From IMG/VR virus record IMGVR_UViG_3300042565_001021, positions 1-64,000 of that record: 64,000 nt of DNA. One strand, written 5' to 3'. Origin of the DNA: a virus. The notes under the pieces are model-generated. The model saw only the letters and a list, made by a program, of their open reading frames with translations, was not told the origin of the DNA and did not search any database. Below, piece after piece: positions 4,675 through 48,228 of the stretch (its first letter is position 1; each line of letters begins with the position of its first letter). Position numbers and translations under genes: made by a program.

Positions 4675-6261
4675 TTACTCCTCAAACAGTGATGGGTTAA
4701 GTATTGGTTTCGTTGGTTCTGCTTTTACTTTGACTACCTTCTCTATGCCTAACATACCTTCAAACTCAAACGTTTCGTGGAAGAACGTGTCTGGATTGAT
4801 AAGGTCGTCTCCTTTGTTACCACGTGTTCCAATGATGCGAGCAAAGTATTTCTTGTAGTGCTCGATTAATGCTAATGCTTTACCTTTGTCGCTCGTTGCG
4901 AAGATGGCATCAATGACTTCGGCGAAGTAATGTAACTCGTATTGCCTAAATCTCTTGCCTTCCATGTAAGACGCATTCATCATCTCTGGGCGTTCGCCGT
5001 TACTGTATCGACGATTAGCTTCCTGCACCGCTTCGATATGACGATGAACGTTGTGTCCCATCAGGATAGCATAGCTGAAACTATCCCAACTGGTGCGTCC
5101 TTCTTTCCCTATCTTATTTAGGTCGCCGGGTCCATAGATACAAATATCTTTGATCGTGCAGCGTTCGCTGACTGGACTTTCTTCGAAAACAGGGAAGATG
5201 CCATCTTGTAATACTGCGTCACGGAAGCGTCGCGTGTCCGTTGAATACTTTTTGTCATCGACGCTTGGTGCCATTCTGTATGTCCATTTGTCATTGTGCG
5301 TGTATTCGTTTGCGACATAGACTTGACCGTTAGCAGTAGCTAAGAATGGACTAGCGCAGTCAAAGCTCACTGTAAAGTTTTCGTTGTGATACTTGCGTAC
5401 CGCATTTTGGATGTCAGTGAGCAACACCGCCCATTCTAGCTTACTGGTTCCTAGGAAGTGCATCCAATCGTGTTTGCCTTTCTCAAGTAATCCGTCGTGC
5501 CGTAGAGCTACTAGCCTTCGAAGGATTAGCTCAACGTCGCACATATTCTGTCCTCCCATCGACCAACCTTCAAATGGTTGTTCGTATTGCTTAGGATCGC
5601 AGTATTTCTTCATCCTGTCATACCAATCGTCTGCCTGTGCGTGTGTCTCGCCTTGTAGAACATTTAGGAATTTACAGTTCCCGTTACGATTGCGCATAAA
5701 GAATTCGTTGTTGATGTCTGTTGCTGCTACCGCTTCAGCGTAAGTGCTTACACCTGTTGCTGCTGCGCCTGCTGGGCTGCGGGCGACCCAGGCCGGAATA
5801 TCAAGGATCATTCCGTAGTCCATGTATGCGTCCATCCAGCTCAATACTTGCGCACGTTTTAACGATGCCTTAGGGCAGTTGATATTTTTCCAATCGCCTT
5901 CCCACACGCCTTTACCGATCTGGAATCCTCCGGAGTCGCCTACTACGAACGAGTATTTGCGATCACGATTGCGAACCATGTCTTCTTTCGGTGCCACTTT
6001 GTTAACATCGAGCTCGGCGTGTCCTGCCGAATACAAAGCCCACTTGTAAGGGAAGTATGCTTCTTCTTTGTTCAGCCAGTTCAGACCTTCTACTCCTGTT
6101 TCAAAGTCAGCAGGTACGCGAGCAGGATCAACGTAGTTTGGATCGAATCGTTGCTTACCTACGTAAGTCGCATAGAACCCACTAAGGGCCGGCAGGAAGA
6201 CAGCCCATCGGCTGCGCCCGTCTGCTCCTACCTGCTTAGATGTTAAGTCATCTCTTAGCAT
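4675..6261 (-). CDS. tRNA-guanine transglycosylase-fold protein (TGT/DpdA-like)
   Basis: DSGGFQ, MILD, VLQG, HFLG, SFDCAS and GHN motifs in TGT order. Confidence 0.8.
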
Positions 6262-6949
6262 TTTTCTTCTCTTCCCAAATTCGTTTCCTTGCCTCTGACA
6301 TTTTTTTCTTTGTCTCTTCAGACATTATTCTTCCTTTAAGTTTAGCACTAATTTTTGCTTTTTGCTCTTCAGTATTCGCTTTACCTTTATGTGACTCACT
6401 TAGTTTAGCACGATGTTCGTCAGTAAATATACGGCCTTTGAGTGATTCAGCATATCGTTTCACTGCTTCGTTGTTCTCTTTAGTTTTACCGGTATTCCAC
6501 GGAACATTACCTTTACCAGCTTCACTTAGCTTTTTTTTATGTTCTTCGGTTTTCGGCTTTCCCTTAGCAGCAGCAGACACTTTTTCTCCATGATTCTTTT
6601 TGATTCCCTTATTTGCTTTACTAATCTTATTTCTACCTTTTTCAGTTAGGAAAGACCCGATTTCTTTATCCTTGTTCCACGGAATAGCACCGCTACATCC
6701 ATCACCTCCGTCTGTTTGGTTACGAAGAATGCCTGTACCTAAATCTTTTCTTCCCCACCAACGAATCAGTCTGCGTTCAAGAGCAAGAGCTCCTATTTCA
6801 GTTAAGTTCGATTCTAGAATTACTATTCGGCGCCGGTCTTTAGGAACAACAACAGAGTGATTGTTTGTGTAAGCACGATTTCCTTGTCCTTTGCCGATGT
6901 AGTAAGGCGTTAGCTCAGAGGTCCGTAAGTAAGCATAAATGTAAAACAT
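6248..6949 (-). CDS. GIY-YIG homing endonuclease with NUMOD3 repeats
   Basis: YIYAY...YYIGKG, E..LI, N.TDGGDG and repeated TEEHKKKLS motifs; ATAAATA at 6969-6975. Confidence 0.85.
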
Positions 6950-8022: not shown

Positions 8023-10779
8023 TTAATCAAACGAAAATAATGAATCGAACGACGATTTGACTTGAGTATTGTTGGTAATATCCCAATTCAAAACTCCGAG
8101 TAAGTTTTCGAATTTCTTAGCGATAGTATCTTCCATTTCACTACTATCGAACGGTAAATCCTTAAACCAATCTGGAATATGAAGAACGTCTGTTGGATAA
8201 GCAACCGAAGTGTATCCCATCGGATTTGGGCGAAGCTTACAGACGATGACTTTCATTCCATCAACTATCTTCATGCTGTAATTGTCGCCATTCATTCGGC
8301 GTAAGATATTCCAATTCATTGCTGCTCTGACGTGTCCGGGCAAGTTCGACTTACCTTCGCGCTCTTCTGTTTCTGTGTAGTTCGTCAAGTTGTTTACACG
8401 TTTCGGAGAACCTTTTTCCCAAGCTGGGACTTCAGCAAAGAACCGCTTAAACTCTTTAATTTTCTCAATGATCTGTTCCTTTGGCACATCGAGAAGAACG
8501 TCTTGTAAAATAACGCTTAGGAATTCCTGAACGACCTTCGGGGTGTCGCTGCGTCGTAGATCAAGTCCAGTAGCCTTTACTTTACCTAACCCTTCAATAA
8601 CACCTTTCTTCTTTGCTGTTTCGTGATCATAGTGATCAAGTCGTGTACCTTCTTGCTCATATACTAGAATAGCATAACGCTTCTTAGTAACAAACAATCC
8701 ACTGAGAGCAACAGTTTCTCGGCCGCCTTTAATCAGCGTACCGCGCTCTGATGGGCAATGGCATTCCCTCTCCATCATTGCTGGGAAGCTTTCGTTTACT
8801 TGTTCAGCAATGCTGTCGTATAGTTGGATGGCTATCTCTTTGTTCCATTCCATTTTCTTTGCTTTGACATCATCTTTAACCATTGGCCAAGCAGAGAAGT
8901 AAGCAGAGTCAGTATCACCGTACACAATAGCTTCGCCGTTGTATTCGTATTTGCCCGTTAAGCATTCGTTAATGAATGCGTCCATGTGTCTCGCAATGAT
9001 ACGACCAGTTAACGTAGTAGATTGACCTAAGCGATGATCGTGGAATCTACAACCTGGGTTAAGCAATGCTCCGTACAAACTGTTTAGGTTAATCTTCTTA
9101 ACAAGCTGTCGCTTATCCCAGAACGCAATTTCTTCTTTATCAGTTGCTGCTTTCTTTTTAGCTTGTAGTTCTTTTCGTTCAGCGTACCAAGTTGCTAGTA
9201 GCGTAGGTATAATACCTTCTGTCTCGTATTGGAAGATCGTACCGTTTGCGCTCAGGACCCACTTCTGACCACCTTCGAAGATGATACGCCATACTTCGTC
9301 TGCTGTGTGAGCAGTAGATACCCCATCTTCTTCCCAGTCAATAATGATCTCGGTACCTTTCTCCATGTTCATAACTGCGGTGTACTCTAAACTACCGAAC
9401 AGTCCTTCCCACGCGCCAGCAAACGACGCACCTTTAATCGTTTTCTTACCTACCTTCTTATCGGCCATTTTCTCAGAAATGTATCTATCAGTCATTACTG
9501 GACGAAGCTGACCGACAATAGTTTCTGGACCCATGTTCAGGGCACGAATACACGAAGGGTACAGAGAGTTAATGTCGATTGCTCCGATGTATTTGTGCAT
9601 TCCTTTTCTCGGATAAGCAACATACGCACCGGCTGCCTTTTCTGTTAGGTCCTCTTCTTTATCCTCGTCGTCTTCGTTGTGGAATGTGCGTTCCTTGCGC
9701 GACGGAACAATAAGCCCTTGCTTATGAGCAGCATTGATGATTGCCTGGTCGGTGACCGCAACCGCTCCCATAGTTGTCTGTAGCAATACTGTGTTATCGT
9801 GCGCTAGTTCGTTTGTCAGGTCCAGGAATTTTAGCTTCTTGTCAAGCTTCGCTAGTAGTATAACGTCCTGTCTGTTATAGTCTAAGAACTTGTAGTAGTC
9901 TTGGTTATACAGTTGATCCAGTGATCCCTCGTAGGACACCTTTCTCTCACCTAGCTCGTACTCACCAATAGCATCCAGCGAATAGCTGTGACGCTCTTCG
10001 TAAGTGTACTTGCGATACAGTTGCATGTAGTCAAGGTGTACGCGGCCAATTAGATCAAATGTAGTGCTCTTAGCACCGTACCGTTCGAACTCTCGCTGCT
10101 TAGGAAGCTGACCCCACAAACACATACGACGCAGGTCATCTTTAGCTAAGGTACGAATGATTCGCCCTACAATGTAGGGTATGTCGTACCCTTCGCTGTT
10201 CCAACCTGTTAAAATATCTGCGTCGTCGATGAGAGTTAAGAAAGAGTCAAGCATGTCAGCTTCTCTTTCAAACACATAAGTATCGTCGAACTTATTTGCT
10301 ATCACTTCAGCAGCTTCTAAAGACAACGATTTCGGTGGAACAGATAAAGTAACTAACTTATCTAGCCAGTCAAAGTAAATCGTGATAGCAGTGATTTTGT
10401 TGAATGGGTTATCTGTCGGAGCGTATCCACCTTGCTCTATGTCAAAGTCTGCCTCGATGTCGATAAATGCTGTGTGTAGCTTAGGAGACTTTGCTCCCAT
10501 GTAGTTAGTTTCTAAGCATCGAAAGACTACGTTACAGTCATTTTCCCACAGCCGCTTTCCACTGTGGATACGCATCTCTTTCCTAAACTCTTTATTGGAA
10601 CGAGATGTGAATCTGCTTACTGGTGTGCGGTAGATTGTTTGATGCTTACCTTTTGGGTCATCGAAATAAAAAATATATTCCGCCGGGAAATCTCTGAATA
10701 CTCGATTCCCATCTTTGTCGCGTTCTACTACGTGAATGCGATCTTTCTCTCGGTCGTGCCGTGCGTCGACGTAACTCAA
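8023..10779 (-). CDS. family B DNA polymerase (T4 gp43-like), TTG start
   Basis: exonuclease DIE and YNxxD motifs; polymerase DINSLYPS, KINLNSLYG and YGDTDS motifs. Confidence 0.97.
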   Translation of the reverse strand: MSYVDARHDREKDRIHVVERDKDGNRVFRDFPAEYIFYFDDPKGKHQTIYRTPVSRFTSRSNKEFRKEMRIHSGKRLWENDCNVVFRCLETNYMGAKSPKLHTAFIDIEADFDIEQGGYAPTDNPFNKITAITIYFDWLDKLVTLSVPPKSLSLEAAEVIANKFDDTYVFEREADMLDSFLTLIDDADILTGWNSEGYDIPYIVGRIIRTLAKDDLRRMCLWGQLPKQREFERYGAKSTTFDLIGRVHLDYMQLYRKYTYEERHSYSLDAIGEYELGERKVSYEGSLDQLYNQDYYKFLDYNRQDVILLAKLDKKLKFLDLTNELAHDNTVLLQTTMGAVAVTDQAIINAAHKQGLIVPSRKERTFHNEDDEDKEEDLTEKAAGAYVAYPRKGMHKYIGAIDINSLYPSCIRALNMGPETIVGQLRPVMTDRYISEKMADKKVGKKTIKGASFAGAWEGLFGSLEYTAVMNMEKGTEIIIDWEEDGVSTAHTADEVWRIIFEGGQKWVLSANGTIFQYETEGIIPTLLATWYAERKELQAKKKAATDKEEIAFWDKRQLVKKINLNSLYGALLNPGCRFHDHRLGQSTTLTGRIIARHMDAFINECLTGKYEYNGEAIVYGDTDSAYFSAWPMVKDDVKAKKMEWNKEIAIQLYDSIAEQVNESFPAMMERECHCPSERGTLIKGGRETVALSGLFVTKKRYAILVYEQEGTRLDHYDHETAKKKGVIEGLGKVKATGLDLRRSDTPKVVQEFLSVILQDVLLDVPKEQIIEKIKEFKRFFAEVPAWEKGSPKRVNNLTNYTETEEREGKSNLPGHVRAAMNWNILRRMNGDNYSMKIVDGMKVIVCKLRPNPMGYTSVAYPTDVLHIPDWFKDLPFDSSEMEDTIAKKFENLLGVLNWDITNNTQVKSSFDSLFSFD

Positions 10780-10844
10780 ATTGATACTCCTATTATCCGC
10801 TTGTGGCCGGAATCACCGTGATTTAAGTGCTGCTAGATTATTTC

Positions 10845-11105
10845 CTAGAGAGTACGCCCAACAGTTTCAAGAAGATCAGCAACTGTTTCGTGGTCTTCGT
10901 TCATTTCGGTGAACCTGGACTTTTGGGCAACCTTTACGGCTTTCTTCAGTAAGGCCGGTTTTATCTCTAGCTCTTCTGCTACTGCTTTGATTGTATCCGA
11001 AAGGCCTTCAGACAAGTCTTCTACTTCTTGGAGCACCGCTATGCTTTCGGTGAATAGCTGTGTCAGTTTCGCTTTCTGTTCCGGTGTAAACATCCTAGTA
11101 ACCAT
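10845..11105 (-). CDS. dsDNA-binding protein (T4 DsbA-like)
   Basis: 86-aa helical protein with IKAVAEELEIKP motif. Confidence 0.65.
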   Translation of the reverse strand: MVTRMFTPEQKAKLTQLFTESIAVLQEVEDLSEGLSDTIKAVAEELEIKPALLKKAVKVAQKSRFTEMNEDHETVADLLETVGRTL

Positions 11106-11167
11106 ACAATGAATCTCCTATTTAAATTATTATAACGTAATATTATTTGTTAAATCAACCCGTTTGG

Positions 11168-11238
11168 TATAAATAATAGTGCGGTTCGCTGGTTTCGTCG
11201 ACCCTAACCGCTCTATCGCTAACTGGAGCAACAGCATG
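11168..11238 (+). promoter_or_regulatory. late promoter plus conserved structured leader of homing endonuclease (copy C)
   Basis: TATAAATA followed by GCGGTT/AACCGC, GGT/ACC and GCT/AGC stems; same layout at 46303 and 47385. Confidence 0.7.
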
Positions 11239-11907
11239 AGTATTTATAGTCATATCGCGCCACCCACTGGATTTTATGTATACGCATATATTCGGATTAA
11301 AGATTCTAAAACAGCAAAAGCAGGCACACCTTACTACATTGGTAAAGGTAAGCAATCAAGGGCAATCGCAAAACATTCTTTTACAGTTCCGGAATGCTCG
11401 AGAATAATTATCTTAGAAGAAAACCTAACCGAAATCGGTGCTTTAGCAATTGAGAGGCGCCTTATTAGATTATGGGGCCGTAAAGATTTAGGAACCGGTA
11501 TTTTGTTGAATATGACTGACGGCGGCGACGGTGCCGAGGGGCAACTGTGTTCAGATTCGAAGAGAGCTGCTCTTTCGAAAAAGTTAACCGGGTTATCAAA
11601 AACTACCGACGCATATAAGAAAATACTATCTGACGAAATCAAGAATGGTAAGCGACCCACATTTACTACTGCCGGATATAAATTCACGGATGAACAATGT
11701 TCTAATATATCAAAAGGAAGAAAAGGGCAACCTGCGAACAACAAAGGGGTATCGCCGACAAAAGTAACCTGCTTACACTGTAAGAAAGAAGTAGATGTCC
11801 GCAACTATTCGCGATGGCATTTTAATAACTGTAAGAAGGGTGTCCGATTCGAACAAGCAGGCAGCGAATCTACTTATTCAGGTTCGGATCGACCTACGCC
11901 ACCGTAG
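11236..11907 (+). CDS. GIY-YIG homing endonuclease
   Basis: FYVYAY..YYIGKG and NMTDGGDG motifs, C-terminal CLHC...WH..NC; start moved to the ATG 7 nt after GGAG. Confidence 0.85.
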
Positions 11908-11926
11908 CCATAACGGTCCCGGTTAC
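11839..11926 (-). ncRNA. candidate pseudoknotted structured RNA
   Basis: GTAACC/GGCTAC, GGTG/CACC, AGGT/ACCT and 10-bp GAATAAGTAG/CTGCTTGTTC stems plus a TCCGA/TCGGA pseudoknot. Confidence 0.5.
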
Positions 11927-11931
11927 GTTCT

Positions 11932-13149
11932 TTATCGTCGGCCACCAAGGTCGGTGACCGGTTCCTTTAACCATTCTATGCGGTTCTTTATTTTAGCAGC
12001 AAGTGCTGGATCTTTATCGACTACTTGTTCGTATCGTTGTTCTAACTTAGCAATCTTCTCGTTAGTTATTTGATCCATTTTATGATAAGCACCACCTAAC
12101 CCACCAACAGTGCCAACAGCAATTGCAGTAGCAGCTATATTTTGTTTCCATCCTTCTTTAATCTCGTCTTCAGTAAACACTGGTGGATTTTGCTTGGTCT
12201 GTATCTTACGTTTCAGTGCTTCACGACCTTTAACACGATCCCACATGCCGCGGACTTTACCTTTAGCAATCTCACCTTTTACTTCGTCTGGTTGAGTTCG
12301 AAGATCGCGCAGTCTCTTTGCTTGTAGATTTGCTACTGTTAGGTCGTCGATCTCGCGAACAATCTTCTCTCCGTTATCATCATACTCTCTGTGTATTGAA
12401 GTTAAGTCTTTTAAACGGGAATCCCATGGAGCAAACACTTCGTTTGGTTGTACAGCAATCATATCACCTGCTGCCCAGTTCCTTAGCTTGCCACCGTTTA
12501 GTTTAATGTGACACAGTCCGGTCTCACCAATGCGCTTAAACAGTCCATACGATACATTATCTGGATGATCGTTAGCAACAATTGCTACCTGCTGACCTAC
12601 GAGTTTCTCTACACCTTTGTTGAATATGCTTCCTTGCTTGTTAGGGATGCTCTTAGTCATTGAGGCTTCTGGCACCGGAATACCTTTGTCATACCCTTCT
12701 ACATAGTATGCGTCGTATACCTTAAACCCTTGCTTCTTGTAATGTTCAACTGCTTTCTTGAGTGCGTCAACTTCGTCGCCTTTAACACGGATGAACTTTT
12801 GAATTTCCTCGTTTCTTTCTGACACTGCTACGGCGTTAGGATTAGATATCGTAACAGAGATGCGATGATAGGCTGTGTTAGATTCGTTTATAGCAGTTCC
12901 TTCATTCTCGATCTCTTCTGTAAACCCCTTTAAGGCCATTGTAGCTTTAATCTTTTCAAACGGCAAAGTAACAGGAATACGCTTCTTCTCTTGCCCTACT
13001 TCCATCTCGAAAGCGTTTTCTCCAGGACCCGTCTTCCATAGGTAGATCTTAGATGCCATGCCAGTTGGTTTATCTAGTGTAGGACCTTTGCGGAAAATAG
13101 CAATTAGCTTGCCTTCGCTTTCTTGTAAAAAGAGTTCAGTGACAAACAT
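11932..13149 (-). CDS. putative internal virion protein (modular)
   Basis: N-terminus MFVTELFLQE and internal INE-S, FTE-D and IKE-G motifs. Confidence 0.5.
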   Translation of the reverse strand: MFVTELFLQESEGKLIAIFRKGPTLDKPTGMASKIYLWKTGPGENAFEMEVGQEKKRIPVTLPFEKIKATMALKGFTEEIENEGTAINESNTAYHRISVTISNPNAVAVSERNEEIQKFIRVKGDEVDALKKAVEHYKKQGFKVYDAYYVEGYDKGIPVPEASMTKSIPNKQGSIFNKGVEKLVGQQVAIVANDHPDNVSYGLFKRIGETGLCHIKLNGGKLRNWAAGDMIAVQPNEVFAPWDSRLKDLTSIHREYDDNGEKIVREIDDLTVANLQAKRLRDLRTQPDEVKGEIAKGKVRGMWDRVKGREALKRKIQTKQNPPVFTEDEIKEGWKQNIAATAIAVGTVGGLGGAYHKMDQITNEKIAKLEQRYEQVVDKDPALAAKIKNRIEWLKEPVTDLGGRR

Positions 13150-29880: not shown

Positions 29881-29952
29881 GCTGCTCGGCGGGAATCGAA
29901 CCCGCTGCCTTGAGTTTTAGAAGCTCTTGCTCGACCAATCAGCTTCGAGCGC
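29881..29952 (-). tRNA. degenerate tRNA-like gene, anticodon CUA (amber)
   Basis: T arm GCGGG-TTCGATT-CCCGC, D arm with GG, CTA at canonical 34-36; anticodon and acceptor stems imperfect, no CCA. Confidence 0.6.
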
Positions 29953-46287: not shown

Positions 46288-46302
46288 ATTTGTATTTATC
46301 GG

Positions 46303-46370
46303 ATAAATAAGTGTAGTCCACGGAGCGACAACTCCCGACTACTCTAACATTAAAGGGCAATGTCAGCATG
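46303..46370 (+). promoter_or_regulatory. late promoter plus conserved structured leader of homing endonuclease (copy A)
   Basis: ATAAATA; GTAGTC/GACTAC, GGAG/CTCC and ACATT/AATGT stems. Confidence 0.75.
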
Positions 46371-47027
46371 TATATTTATTACGTTTACGCGTACCTCCGA
46401 AGTAAAGACTCAGCAACCGCTAAGGCCGGAACACCTTATTACATTGGTAAAGGCAAAGATGCCCGAATTGATAAACTACACGGGAAAGTTCCGGTACCAA
46501 AAGACAAAAAGAATCGAGTTGTTCTCGAAAGACACTTATCTGAAATTGGCGCCTTTGCCATTGAGCGTCGACTAGTAAGATGGTTTGGTCGTAAGGACTT
46601 AGGAACAGGAATACTATTAAATCAAACAGATGGCGGAGAAGGTTCTGCAGGTAGAATAATGCCAGAATCTGAACGGAAAAATAGATCAGCTCGCAATAAA
46701 GGAAAACCCGGAAGAATCTGGACTGAGGCTGAAAGACTAAACAAATCAACTCAGATGAAAGGTAGATTGCGAACAGCCGAGCAAAGGAAAGTAACATCTG
46801 AGTCATTGAAAGGTAAAGCAAAGCCGCCACGATCCGCCGAGCATAGCGCGAATCTTTCGAGGTCATTGGCAGGTAGGATTAGGAAACCGCTAACTCAAGA
46901 ACATATCGCAAATATCTCAGCCGGAAAAATAGGCAAAACTAAAGGGAAACCGTGGAGCCAAGCAAGAAGAGATGCTCACATTAAACGGTTGGCGCTTCGG
47001 GCTCAGTTGGTGTCGTCTCGGGCGTAG
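46368..47027 (+). CDS. GIY-YIG homing endonuclease
   Basis: YYVYAY..YYIGKG and NQTDGGEG motifs; N-domain very similar to 11236..11907. Confidence 0.85.
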
Positions 47028-47370: not shown

Positions 47371-47384
47371 CTTGTTCCTTTGAG

Positions 47385-47455
47385 ATAAATAATTGTGTAG
47401 TTCGCGGACCCTCCAATCCCAACTACTCTAACATAAAAGGACTATGTCAGCAATG
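47385..47455 (+). promoter_or_regulatory. late promoter plus conserved structured leader of homing endonuclease (copy B)
   Basis: ATAAATA; GTAGTT/AACTAC, GGA/TCC and ACATA/TATGT stems. Confidence 0.75.
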
Positions 47456-48228
47456 TATTTAACAAACAAATATACTAAGTGGTATAATAACATCATATTA
47501 ACCGCCAAAGCAAGAAGCTTGCTCAAAATTGGTTATTCTGAGAAACATCATATAATACCTAAATCGCTGGGTGGAAACAACAGTAAAGATAACATTGTTG
47601 CTTTAACCGCAAGAGAACACTATGTTTGCCATTTACTTTTACCTAAGATGACCACCGGTAAGGATAGAAATAAAATGGCCTACGCTCTCTCCACCGTATG
47701 CTAAGTGGAAATAGCGATAGGTATCTTCCTAAATCAAAAATATACGAACTTGTTCGTAAATCTATTAAGTCAATGCTTCTCGGTCGTGTTTTCACTAAAG
47801 ACACTCTACAGAAAATGAGTCTGGCAAAGAAAGGAAAACCTAAACCAGATGACATAGCAGCTCGGCTCCGTGTTGCTCGAAAAGGAATGACTAATAGTCA
47901 AGCACATAGAGACAAGTGTTCGTATGCGCTGAGCGGTAGAACCTTCTCAGATACAGCTAAAAAGAATATGAGCTTAAACCACGCAGATGTGGCAGGAAGT
48001 GGCAACCCAAGAGCAAGAGTATGGTTAGTAACAGACCCCAATGGAAAAGAAACTGTATTAAACGGTAACATGGGACAATTTTGCCAAGAAAATAACTTAC
48101 CTGTTTCAGTAATGAGATCAATTGGCCGCGGAAATCGGCCCCCTAAGAGTGGAAGATGCGTTGGTTGGGGTGTATCTCTTATTTCCGACGAATCCGACAT
48201 AATTCTATTAAGGTCGCGGACAGGTTAA
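47453..48228 (+). pseudogene. HNH homing endonuclease with a frameshift near 47685-47691
   Basis: EKHHIIPKSLGG.N...N...LTAREH...H HNH motif; removing one CT repeat unit gives AYALHRMLSG and joins the NUMOD ORF. Confidence 0.8.

Follow-up and report, generated by a model that had tools for sequence, protein, structure and literature searches.

Judged by its sequence, copy C (positions 11168-11248 of the window, by which we mean the whole 64,000-nt stretch of DNA analysed here) is a true member of a very common control module of about 80 bases, which is absent from Rfam and is found in uncultured T4-like phages. The conserved fold of this module fits the strand opposite to the gene, and we predict a small antisense RNA that would restrain the nuclease. 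The reading that we prefer, with a probability of about 45%, is that two facing late promoters would give the nuclease mRNA and an antisense RNA of ~65 nt, with two hairpins, lying over the ribosome-binding site.

In large phages the chief selfish elements are homing endonucleases; the means by which they spare their carrier are understood for a few T4 genes only. If the action proposed here is true, hundreds of environmental phage nucleases would be under one antisense-RNA brake. The RNA family would then be one without prior description or Rfam entry, compact, portable between gene families and easily tested.

The cassette, its family and its genomic context

Within an IMG/VR contig of 155 kb, estimated to be 44% complete, the window covers the first 64 kb. 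The features of copy C and of the two other copies in the window, A and B, are listed below in window coordinates.

11129-11158, minus strand: sigma-70-type promoter TTGATT-18-TATAAT, facing the 86-aa gene at 10845-11105 and the DNA polymerase gene
11166-11235, minus strand: predicted antisense RNA of ~65-70 nt, with two adjacent hairpins and a U-rich tail
11168-11175, plus strand: sense late-promoter-type box TATAAATA, read from the sequence
11181-11211, minus strand: bipartite hairpin P1/P2, based on covariation
11181-11186 with 11206-11211: P1, GCGGTT with AACCGC
11187-11189 and 11205: junction, CGC and T
11190-11193 with 11201-11204: P2, containing GGT (11191-11193) and ACC (11201-11203)
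11194-11200: loop of the P1/P2 hairpin
11213-11234, minus strand: second hairpin, termed P3 on the gene strand and P3' on the antisense strand
11213-11220 with 11227-11234: arms of P3, CTATCGCT with AGCAACAG; loop 11221-11226
11225-11228, plus strand: Shine-Dalgarno (SD) sequence GGAG, inside the P3 region
11236-11238, plus strand: start codon ATG, with CAGC directly before it
11236-11907, plus strand: free-standing homing endonuclease gene of GIY-YIG type, 223 aa (PHROG match)
11241-11248, minus strand: antisense late-promoter-type box, TATTTATA on the plus strand and TATAAATA on the minus strand
46302-46382, plus strand: copy A, heading a 219-aa GIY-YIG-type gene (46368-47027); 83 bits with model R2
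47384-47467, plus strand: copy B, heading a truncated 83-aa HNH gene (47453-47704); 78 bits with model R2

The layout of the family runs from a box NATAAATA through GTG, a 6-bp P1, a CRC junction, a 4-bp P2, a single C/T and P1' to a CTCTA linker, the SD hairpin, CAGC and, 5 nt on, the inverted box. Every one of these elements was found in copy C at 11168-11248. The sense box is followed by the spacer ATAGT, P1 and P3 are separated by TCTA, and AG lies between the ATG and TATTTATA, so that the inverted box falls within codons 2-5 of the endonuclease gene. The deviations of copy C from the family layout are the first P2 pair, which is T.C, and the 3' junction base, which is T. On the minus strand, the complement of the sense box together with 11176-11180 forms a U-rich tail ACUAUUAUUUAUA past the hairpin. 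The first-pass annotation had described copy C as having the layout of copies A and B with compensatory changes, and all the parts that it named were found in their places. It had also pointed to a perfect antisense TATAAATA after the ATG; far from being a curiosity, this box belongs to the core of the module.

We built a covariance model (R2) from copies A and B and 68 diverse IMG/VR copies, leaving copy C out. Copy C was recovered over its full length (1-83) with 65.8 bits (E = 5.5 × 10−13), and it is thus a family member; the check proposed in the first-pass annotation, a search for copy C with a model of the other copies and external homologues, has in this way come out in its favour. Two pattern scans of IMG/VR gave more than 200 distinct copies of the cassette. 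The looser pattern, which consisted of the fixed box and a few bases only, matched at least 119 loci. Among the matches listed, P1 was paired at 6 of 6 positions in 104 of 124 and at 5 of 6 in another 19, and almost all of them are real; a second pattern without the promoter box gave mostly new loci among the matches listed. As a control, the same loose pattern was run on 596 Gb of prokaryote genomes and gave 83 matches, mostly with the chance-like pairing of 2-4 of 6 P1 pairs; the real copies among them numbered only about 7, and each lay on a MAG contig.

All the copies that were checked head a GIY-YIG or an HNH homing endonuclease gene. The element had been proposed to be a leader of homing endonuclease genes, and PHROG matches agree with this for two unrelated families. 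The 223-aa product behind copy C, with the N-terminal motif ..FYVYAYI..PYYIGKG.., matched phrog_314 'homing endonuclease' (6 × 10−11) and also phrog_15526; a Pfam search of this ORF found no match at 0.01.

Database searches with the cassette and its surroundings were negative. Rfam 15 at the gathering score gave nothing at the cassette and one tRNA elsewhere in the whole window, and no match for 11120-11300 at E values up to 10. Megablast of 10500-12500 against 50,697 phage records found no match, nor did blastn of a consensus-like leader against the same records, a search of little power with a 92-nt query of short conserved blocks. The cassette models R1 and R2 did not match the isolates S-PM2, Phosso, Atu_ph07, HTVC008M, S-CRM01, S-SRM01, S-N03, RN05-S, B23 and MA01. 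These ten included the closest polymerase relatives and the cyanophages with the most similar endonucleases, and no cultured carrier of the cassette was found among them.

Ten copies lie on the 155-kb contig: an ATAAATA scan found nine that share the layout on the plus strand, and model R1 a tenth on the minus strand (contig position 136287-136356). Behind the nine plus-strand copies, seven ORFs belong to phrog_314 (GIY-YIG type) and two to phrog_655 (HNH), and the sense box is invariant across the nine. The ORFs of the contig number about 222 on the minus strand vs 34 on the plus strand; the nine cassettes belong to single plus-strand genes that stand against this minus-strand gene flow. The plus-strand endonuclease gene of copy C lies between minus-strand genes on both sides, with the 86-aa gene (10845-11105) followed by a family-B DNA polymerase on one side and a 405-aa gene on the other. 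Jumbo phages of the kind of Phosso, Atu_ph07 and 121Q are the nearest isolates by polymerase, with only 48% identity. One cassette (contig 65508) divides an RNA ligase gene, with the N-terminal part (profile positions 30-194) on one side and the C-terminal part (208-363) on the other. A Sigma70_r2 search found no gp55-type factor in this 44%-complete contig, and PHROG annotation of the genes behind the host-type ATAAATA boxes gave a single tail-fibre match, which says little on whether these are late genes.

Covariation and the strand that folds

The paired structure is far more than chance. In the nine plus-strand copies of the contig, 94% of the P1/P2 cells were paired, vs 28-44% with a slid partner, and 7 of the 12 P1/P2 pairs showed changes on both sides. 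When the antisense strand of 70 diverse copies was read, pairing reached 96.5% of the cells (30-50% when slid), and double changes were found in 14 of 18 pairs (262 cells); no shuffle of this set reached the observed values for pairing or double changes. The first-pass annotation had suggested that structure rather than sequence is conserved, and this covariation, in the nine contig copies as well as in the 70 diverse ones, confirms it.

We then investigated on which strand the helices fit. The helix registers were picked by Watson-Crick pairs alone, and the remaining cells were counted on the gene strand. Among the matches listed, the P1 cells comprised 727 Watson-Crick pairs, 23 A.C or C.A and 0 G.U, and the P3 cells 482 Watson-Crick pairs, 63 A.C and 1 G.U; the P1 mismatches arise from at least 13 different arm combinations. 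P1 and P3 together thus had 86 A.C vs 1 G.U. Because A.C on one strand is G.U on the other, the mismatches of the gene strand are wobbles of the opposite strand. The copies of the cassette are related and the counts are not independent events, and even so a ratio of 86 to 1 is past any plausible mutational bias.

Other results agree with this direction. On the antisense strand, the junction pair of the 70 copies was G-C in 40, G.U in 21 and A-U in 9, and P1/P2 including this pair forms an 11-pair helix that is 99% paired. RNAalifold predicted P3 in the antisense orientation only. The antisense fold was the more stable one in 112 of 119 copies among the matches listed, with a mean difference of 4.3 kcal/mol. 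In copy C, the two 'gaps' of P3 are A.C and C.A mismatches on the gene strand, and on the minus strand this interrupted stem (CT-A...C-AG) closes into a clean helix of 8 bp, two of them G.U. There is one exception in copy C, a junction pair that is G.U on the gene strand and A.C on the antisense strand, which favours the gene strand.

The calculated folds of the copies in the window can also be compared. The sense leader of copy C (11181-11238) reached −13.1 kcal/mol with an ensemble frequency of 0.10, and its predicted antisense RNA −19.7 kcal/mol with a frequency of 0.55. For copies C, A and B, the sense leaders gave −13.1, −13.9 and −9.9 kcal/mol; the predicted antisense RNAs (68-70 nt) gave −19.7, −21.7 and −19.4 kcal/mol with high ensemble frequency, and each was drawn as two clean hairpins side by side, its U-rich end unpaired.

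That this fold serves as a leader structure in the mRNA of the endonuclease was not supported in the form proposed: nearly all the mismatches are A.C on the gene strand and the opposite strand folds better by 4.3 kcal/mol. The strand of a conserved fold cannot be inferred from the nearest gene, and the A.C/G.U bias here reverses the obvious annotation.

The inverted box, the tail and possible roles of the cassette

We analysed the inverted box in the IMG/VR copies. Among the matches listed, 75 of 120 copies had an exact TATTTAT in the first codons and most others a single-base variant of it; about a fifth had TATTTAC/G/A, and some had TACTTAT. Codon 2 encodes a dozen different amino acids, yet it ends in T in 89 of 120 copies (among the matches listed), and in HNH genes the TATTTAT motif stands in other reading frames. 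The post-ATG box is thus under selection as a nucleotide sequence and is no by-product of Ile-Tyr coding. The distance from CAGC, the base of P3, to the box was 5 nt in 92 of 118 copies among the matches listed. The same spacing was found in 9 of 10 copies scored as having the start codon upstream of CAGC, although copies A and B were wrongly counted among these ten. As the spacing holds whatever the frame or start position, the place of the box is fixed with reference to the fold and not to the gene.

In T4 late promoters, the box lies at −13 to −6. This rule and the 5-nt spacing together put the antisense +1 at a G one base 5' of helix P3'; in copy C the 5' end of the antisense RNA would be G 11235, 6 nt past the box.

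The two boxes do not behave as the arms of one helix. The sense-box variants CTAAATA (12 copies) and GTAAATA (4 copies) had no complementary change downstream, and among the matches listed the family copies showed neither covariation of a box/anti-box helix nor pairing past the 7-mer. This absence of covariation points to two promoter-like elements rather than one RNA helix. The same variants show that NTAAATA is tolerated at what is presumably a functional sense promoter.

The motif NATAAATA is the late-promoter motif of T4 and cyanophages (PMC2984593). The spacer after the sense box was 73% A in the leaders vs 29% for 15 boxes of host type in this contig, and this A-rich spacer makes ACUUUUAUUUAU the commonest antisense tail. 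The 12 nt past the antisense stem contain 5-8 U, and two bases lie between the stem and the U run. The antisense hairpin and its tail look like an intrinsic terminator. A simple terminator scan passed over this hairpin, because its stem has an internal loop.

The mechanism that we propose builds on what was observed above: the family and its covariation, the strand bias, the constant spacing and the composition of the tail. From these we infer activity of the antisense box as a promoter, termination at the hairpin and regulation by the RNA. The cassette would be a portable unit of ~80 bp that uncultured T4-like phages carry joined to the 5' ends of free-standing homing endonuclease genes. Its sense box would start the endonuclease mRNA at P1 or just inside it. 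The antisense box in codons 2-5, at its constant distance of 5 nt from the foot of the fold, would start an RNA of ~65 nt made up of exactly two hairpins, P3' and P1/P2, and ending in a U-rich tail that is the complement of the sense box and the A-rich spacer. This RNA would be complementary to the whole endonuclease leader, the Shine-Dalgarno sequence included, and in a second subtype it would reach over the start codon as well. Late in infection it would pair with the mRNA, cutting the translation or the stability of a potentially harmful nuclease. Several observations stand against this proposal. The TATTTAC/G/A and TACTTAT variants would make a weaker T4-type box. At some loci 26-29 nt separate the cassette from the start of the host gene downstream, so transcription of the host strand must sometimes pass the hairpin. 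The negative terminator scan, the junction pair of copy C that favours the gene strand and the negative search for a gp55-type factor in the 44%-complete contig also count against it.

The surroundings of the cassette raise the question of whether the fold could act for the host strand. It might be a terminator, an insulator or a 3'/5' stabiliser for transcripts that cross the inserted gene backwards; the adjacent outward early promoter would then restart the host neighbour, and the antisense box would be a mere spare late promoter. We consider this rather unlikely as the whole explanation. The strand bias speaks for it just as it does for the antisense regulator, and 9 of the 10 contig copies oppose the 222-to-34 gene array. 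Outward promoters of sigma-70 type with a score of at least 10 of 12 occurred in 29 of 123 copies vs 4 in the opposite reading, among the matches listed; they usually lie 0-16 nt from the cassette and often 5-9 nt ahead of the ATG of the neighbour, and that of copy C starts 10 nt beyond the cassette. The C-terminal half of the split RNA ligase needs expression signals of its own, and Dassa et al. 2009 (PMC2677866) describe a hairpin that is retained where the endonuclease was lost. The promoter, split-ligase and context facts fit a terminator-plus-promoter arrangement on the host strand, and they keep this explanation alive.

Against it stands the gene context at other loci. Among the matches listed, the upstream neighbour was divergent at 67 loci and co-directional at 42; at these 42 of 109 loci there is no host gene downstream of the antisense box, and the box is equally kept. 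The inverted box was retained in 55% of copies with or without a downstream host gene (among the matches listed), which indicates that it does not serve solely to drive the neighbour gene. A role of the antisense box only for a divergent neighbour was therefore rejected as its sole role. A host-strand function also leaves unexplained the fixed 5-nt spacing from box to helix and the fact that the first hairpin is the exact complement of the ribosome-binding site.

The antisense-regulator and host-strand readings could both be true together. As a tentative extension, the cassette may be a self-contained mobile 'insertion kit' that accompanies phage homing endonucleases of unrelated families, with facing late promoters, a two-hairpin silencing RNA, a terminator made from the complement of the sense promoter and, often, an early promoter pointing outward, from which expression of the interrupted host gene restarts as a near-leaderless mRNA. 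If so, phages would have a new class of regulatory RNA of very wide occurrence, and the question of how selfish nucleases keep their cost low would have a general answer. The outward promoters and the split RNA ligase show how insertions become tolerable to the host phage.

An element of the sense mRNA, in which a 5'-terminal hairpin stabilises the late mRNA and a small hairpin presents or partly masks the SD sequence, seems improbable to us. The helices do still form on the gene strand, with about 90% of the cells paired, the common 5-nt spacing puts the sense +1 at the first base of P1, and the SD sequence lies within the loop and 3' arm of P3. However, an RNA of the gene strand would be expected to show the opposite of the 86 A.C vs 1 G.U counted in P1 and P3. 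The leaders of copies C, A and B fold weakly (for C, a z-score of −0.2 at the ensemble frequency of 0.10), and the 3-nt spacing of about a quarter of the copies, among the matches listed, puts the +1 inside P1.

Masking in the style of I-TevI would involve the two boxes directly. The AUAAAUA of a read-through transcript would pair with the UAUUUAU past the AUG and close the start region, and late transcripts, which lack the 5' arm, would be translated. Such a mechanism is established for I-TevI, segB and mobE (PMC2988022). Inverted 7-mers flank the leader in most copies among the matches listed, and RNAfold draws the box/anti-box helix for C and B when the box is included. At the 42 of 109 loci with a co-directional upstream gene, this gene ends a median of 9 nt before the cassette (among the matches listed), which makes read-through plausible. 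Nevertheless, we regard the explanation as quite improbable for the cassette: there are no compensatory changes in the boxes and pairing stops at the 7-mer, a 7-bp A-U helix is weak, and the strand bias of P1 and P3 is unexplained. Copy C and 8 other copies of the contig have a divergent upstream neighbour, so no sense read-through is expected there.

The ~80 bp might instead act as DNA, with no RNA involved: as a site of recombination or shuffling, or as an operator for a protein, for example one over the promoter at which the endonuclease represses itself. We hold this to be very improbable. Compensatory changes, and a G.U/A.C bias tied to the strand, are the marks of RNA and not of duplex DNA, and GIY-YIG and HNH enzymes of different specificities could not share one operator. 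In its favour, the cassette is common to unrelated endonuclease families and looks portable, and I-TevI binds an operator over its own late promoter (PMC2988022).

Comparison with known systems

Late promoters and hairpins that mask the ribosome-binding site have been described for I-TevI, I-TevII, I-TevIII and segB of T-even phages and for mobE of Aeh1 (Gott 1988; Gibb and Edgell 2007/2009; reviewed in PMC2988022). The cassette resembles them in having a late TATAAATA box and an RNA structure directly before a phage homing endonuclease gene, with the ribosome-binding site in a hairpin, and in the apparent restriction of endonuclease expression. The masking hairpin of the T-even genes encloses the promoter and folds in the read-through mRNA of the gene itself, whereas the box of the cassette lies upstream of P1, P2 and P3, the fold is selected on the opposite strand and a second, inverted box stands in the first codons. 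One conserved cassette also serves hundreds of genes from two families, unlike the T-even hairpins.

We compared copy C with two features of the I-TevI/mobE type and rejected it on both. A late promoter inside the inhibitory helix is not found, as the box of copy C is 5' of P1, P2 and P3; nor is a co-directional early or middle unit, as copy C is flanked by minus-strand genes. The weak pairing of box and anti-box, which has no covariation, is the sole feature of the cassette that would fit a helix with an internal promoter.

Dassa et al. 2009 reported hairpins before free-standing endonucleases in 'fractured genes' of ocean metagenomes (PMC2677866). Ten of them have the late-promoter element TATAAATA, two complementary conserved motifs form the stem, and the hairpins were read as translational hairpins of the mRNA of mobE type. 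These are, like ours, metagenomic free-standing endonucleases of GIY-YIG type with 5' hairpins, and a cassette of our contig also fractures an RNA ligase gene. Judged by their description, they are probably the same or a sister element. The strand test, the antisense box, the family model and the count are given here and do not appear in the text of that paper. Our literature search found no paper with an antisense reading of the cassette. We believe that the following are also additions of the present analysis: the leave-one-out test for copy C, the promoter-agnostic test of box covariation, the invariance of the spacing across two start-codon subtypes, the comparison of A-rich spacers, the prokaryote-genome control and the count of outward sigma-70 promoters.

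Cis-antisense control is known from RNA-OUT and RNA-IN of IS10/Tn10, where RNA-OUT acts on the transposase, and from sar of P22. The predicted RNA of the cassette resembles RNA-OUT and sar, as it would be a short and stable stem-loop RNA from a facing promoter just inside the gene and covering the ribosome-binding site. In copy C, the putative facing promoter of RNA-OUT type is a perfect late-type box at a fixed spacing. In contrast to IS10 and P22, the RNA of the cassette is predicted to have two hairpins and an end like an intrinsic terminator, and its sequence, host and promoter type (phage late) are unrelated to theirs.

The cyanophage S-PM2 has CfrI, a detected antisense RNA over a homing endonuclease gene (Millard et al. 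2010, cited in PMC2984593), which is ~225 nt long and links the endonuclease to psbA. In S-PM2, the best hit of model R1 had an E value of 1.8 at an unrelated place and R2 gave nothing, and CfrI thus lies outside the cassette family. CfrI is one experimental precedent, in a T4-like phage, for an antisense RNA over a homing endonuclease gene.

Outward promoters and divided or possibly divided neighbour genes

Sigma-70-type promoters that point outward were located past the cassette, usually by 0-16 nt, in 29 of the 123 copies among the matches listed, and the control in the reverse direction gave 4. Copy C (window 11168-11250) is one of these 29 loci; others include L014, L114 and L005.

Outward promoter beside copy C
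Window 11129-11158, (-) strand: sigma-70-type promoter

Because the ATG of the neighbouring gene often lies just 5-9 nt downstream of the promoter, this arrangement suggests that such neighbours would be expressed from near-leaderless mRNAs.

Past the window, the RNA ligase gene (phrog_562; contig G000:C1 64862-66847, loci L003 and L136) was found in two pieces, with a cassette and a GIY-YIG gene on the opposite strand between them. A perfect TTGACA-17-TATAAT is located 9 nt upstream of the ATG of the C-terminal half.

Pieces of the RNA ligase gene (contig coordinates)
66263-66847, (-) strand: N-terminal part, phrog_562 profile positions 30-194
64862-65455, (-) strand: C-terminal part, phrog_562 profile positions 208-363

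Two other genes adjoining cassettes on this contig match only the inner or C-terminal part of their profiles: a primase-like gene (104745-105296, (-); DNA primase profile positions 141-334 of 435) and a helicase-like gene (148903-150381, (-); helicase profile positions 242-613 of 986). They start 26-29 nt from their respective cassettes. Both may likewise be fractured.

Incomplete and divergent copies

A tenth cassette was a weaker match to R1, the covariance model of the cassette family (E = 1.5 × 10−4). Its P1 is GCAAGC/GCTTGC, its box-to-fold spacer is 6 nt, and it runs in the same direction as the host genes.

Tenth cassette
Contig G000:C1 136287-136356, (-) strand: locus L135

The GIY-YIG/NUMOD3 endonuclease of 233 aa at window 6248-6949 (-), which has the same direction as its neighbours, is a paralogue without a cassette; a GATAAATAA box lies about 12 nt upstream of its SD, and all of the hairpins are absent. 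The HNH gene of copy B (window 47453-47704, (+)) encodes 83 aa, versus 232 aa in its paralogue (contig 150477-151175), and is probably decaying, with its cassette intact. At L019 (722-795, (-)), an orphan cassette with intact box, P1 and P2 is joined straight to an apparent endonuclease C-terminal end (..RWHFENC..), and it is the remnant of a deletion.

Cassettes in bacterial bins and a different module in cyanophages

Genuine cassettes were also detected on short contigs of bacterial MAG bins (L259, L269, L279, L281, L287, L318 and L324), named Bacteroidia, Haliscomenobacter, Bacteroides, Luteolibacter and Dechloromonas, among others. These contigs are probably misbinned phage DNA, and the bin names should not be used for assigning a host. 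At the gathering score, Rfam gave a single match in the whole window, a tRNA at 29884-29950 (-) with 35.3 bits.

Among cultured cyanophages, S-SRM01, B23 and MA01 have the GIY-YIG genes of greatest similarity; the module they carry is unlike the cassette.

Cyanophage modules (locus coordinates)
L142 1090-1203: S-SRM01
L145 1098-1198: B23
L146 1083-1198: MA01

In this module a late box comes first, followed by a 10-15 nt stretch complementary to the leader of the same gene, a canonical terminator, another late box and, last, the leader itself. For a related idea, the module in these three phages could provide a system that can be grown.
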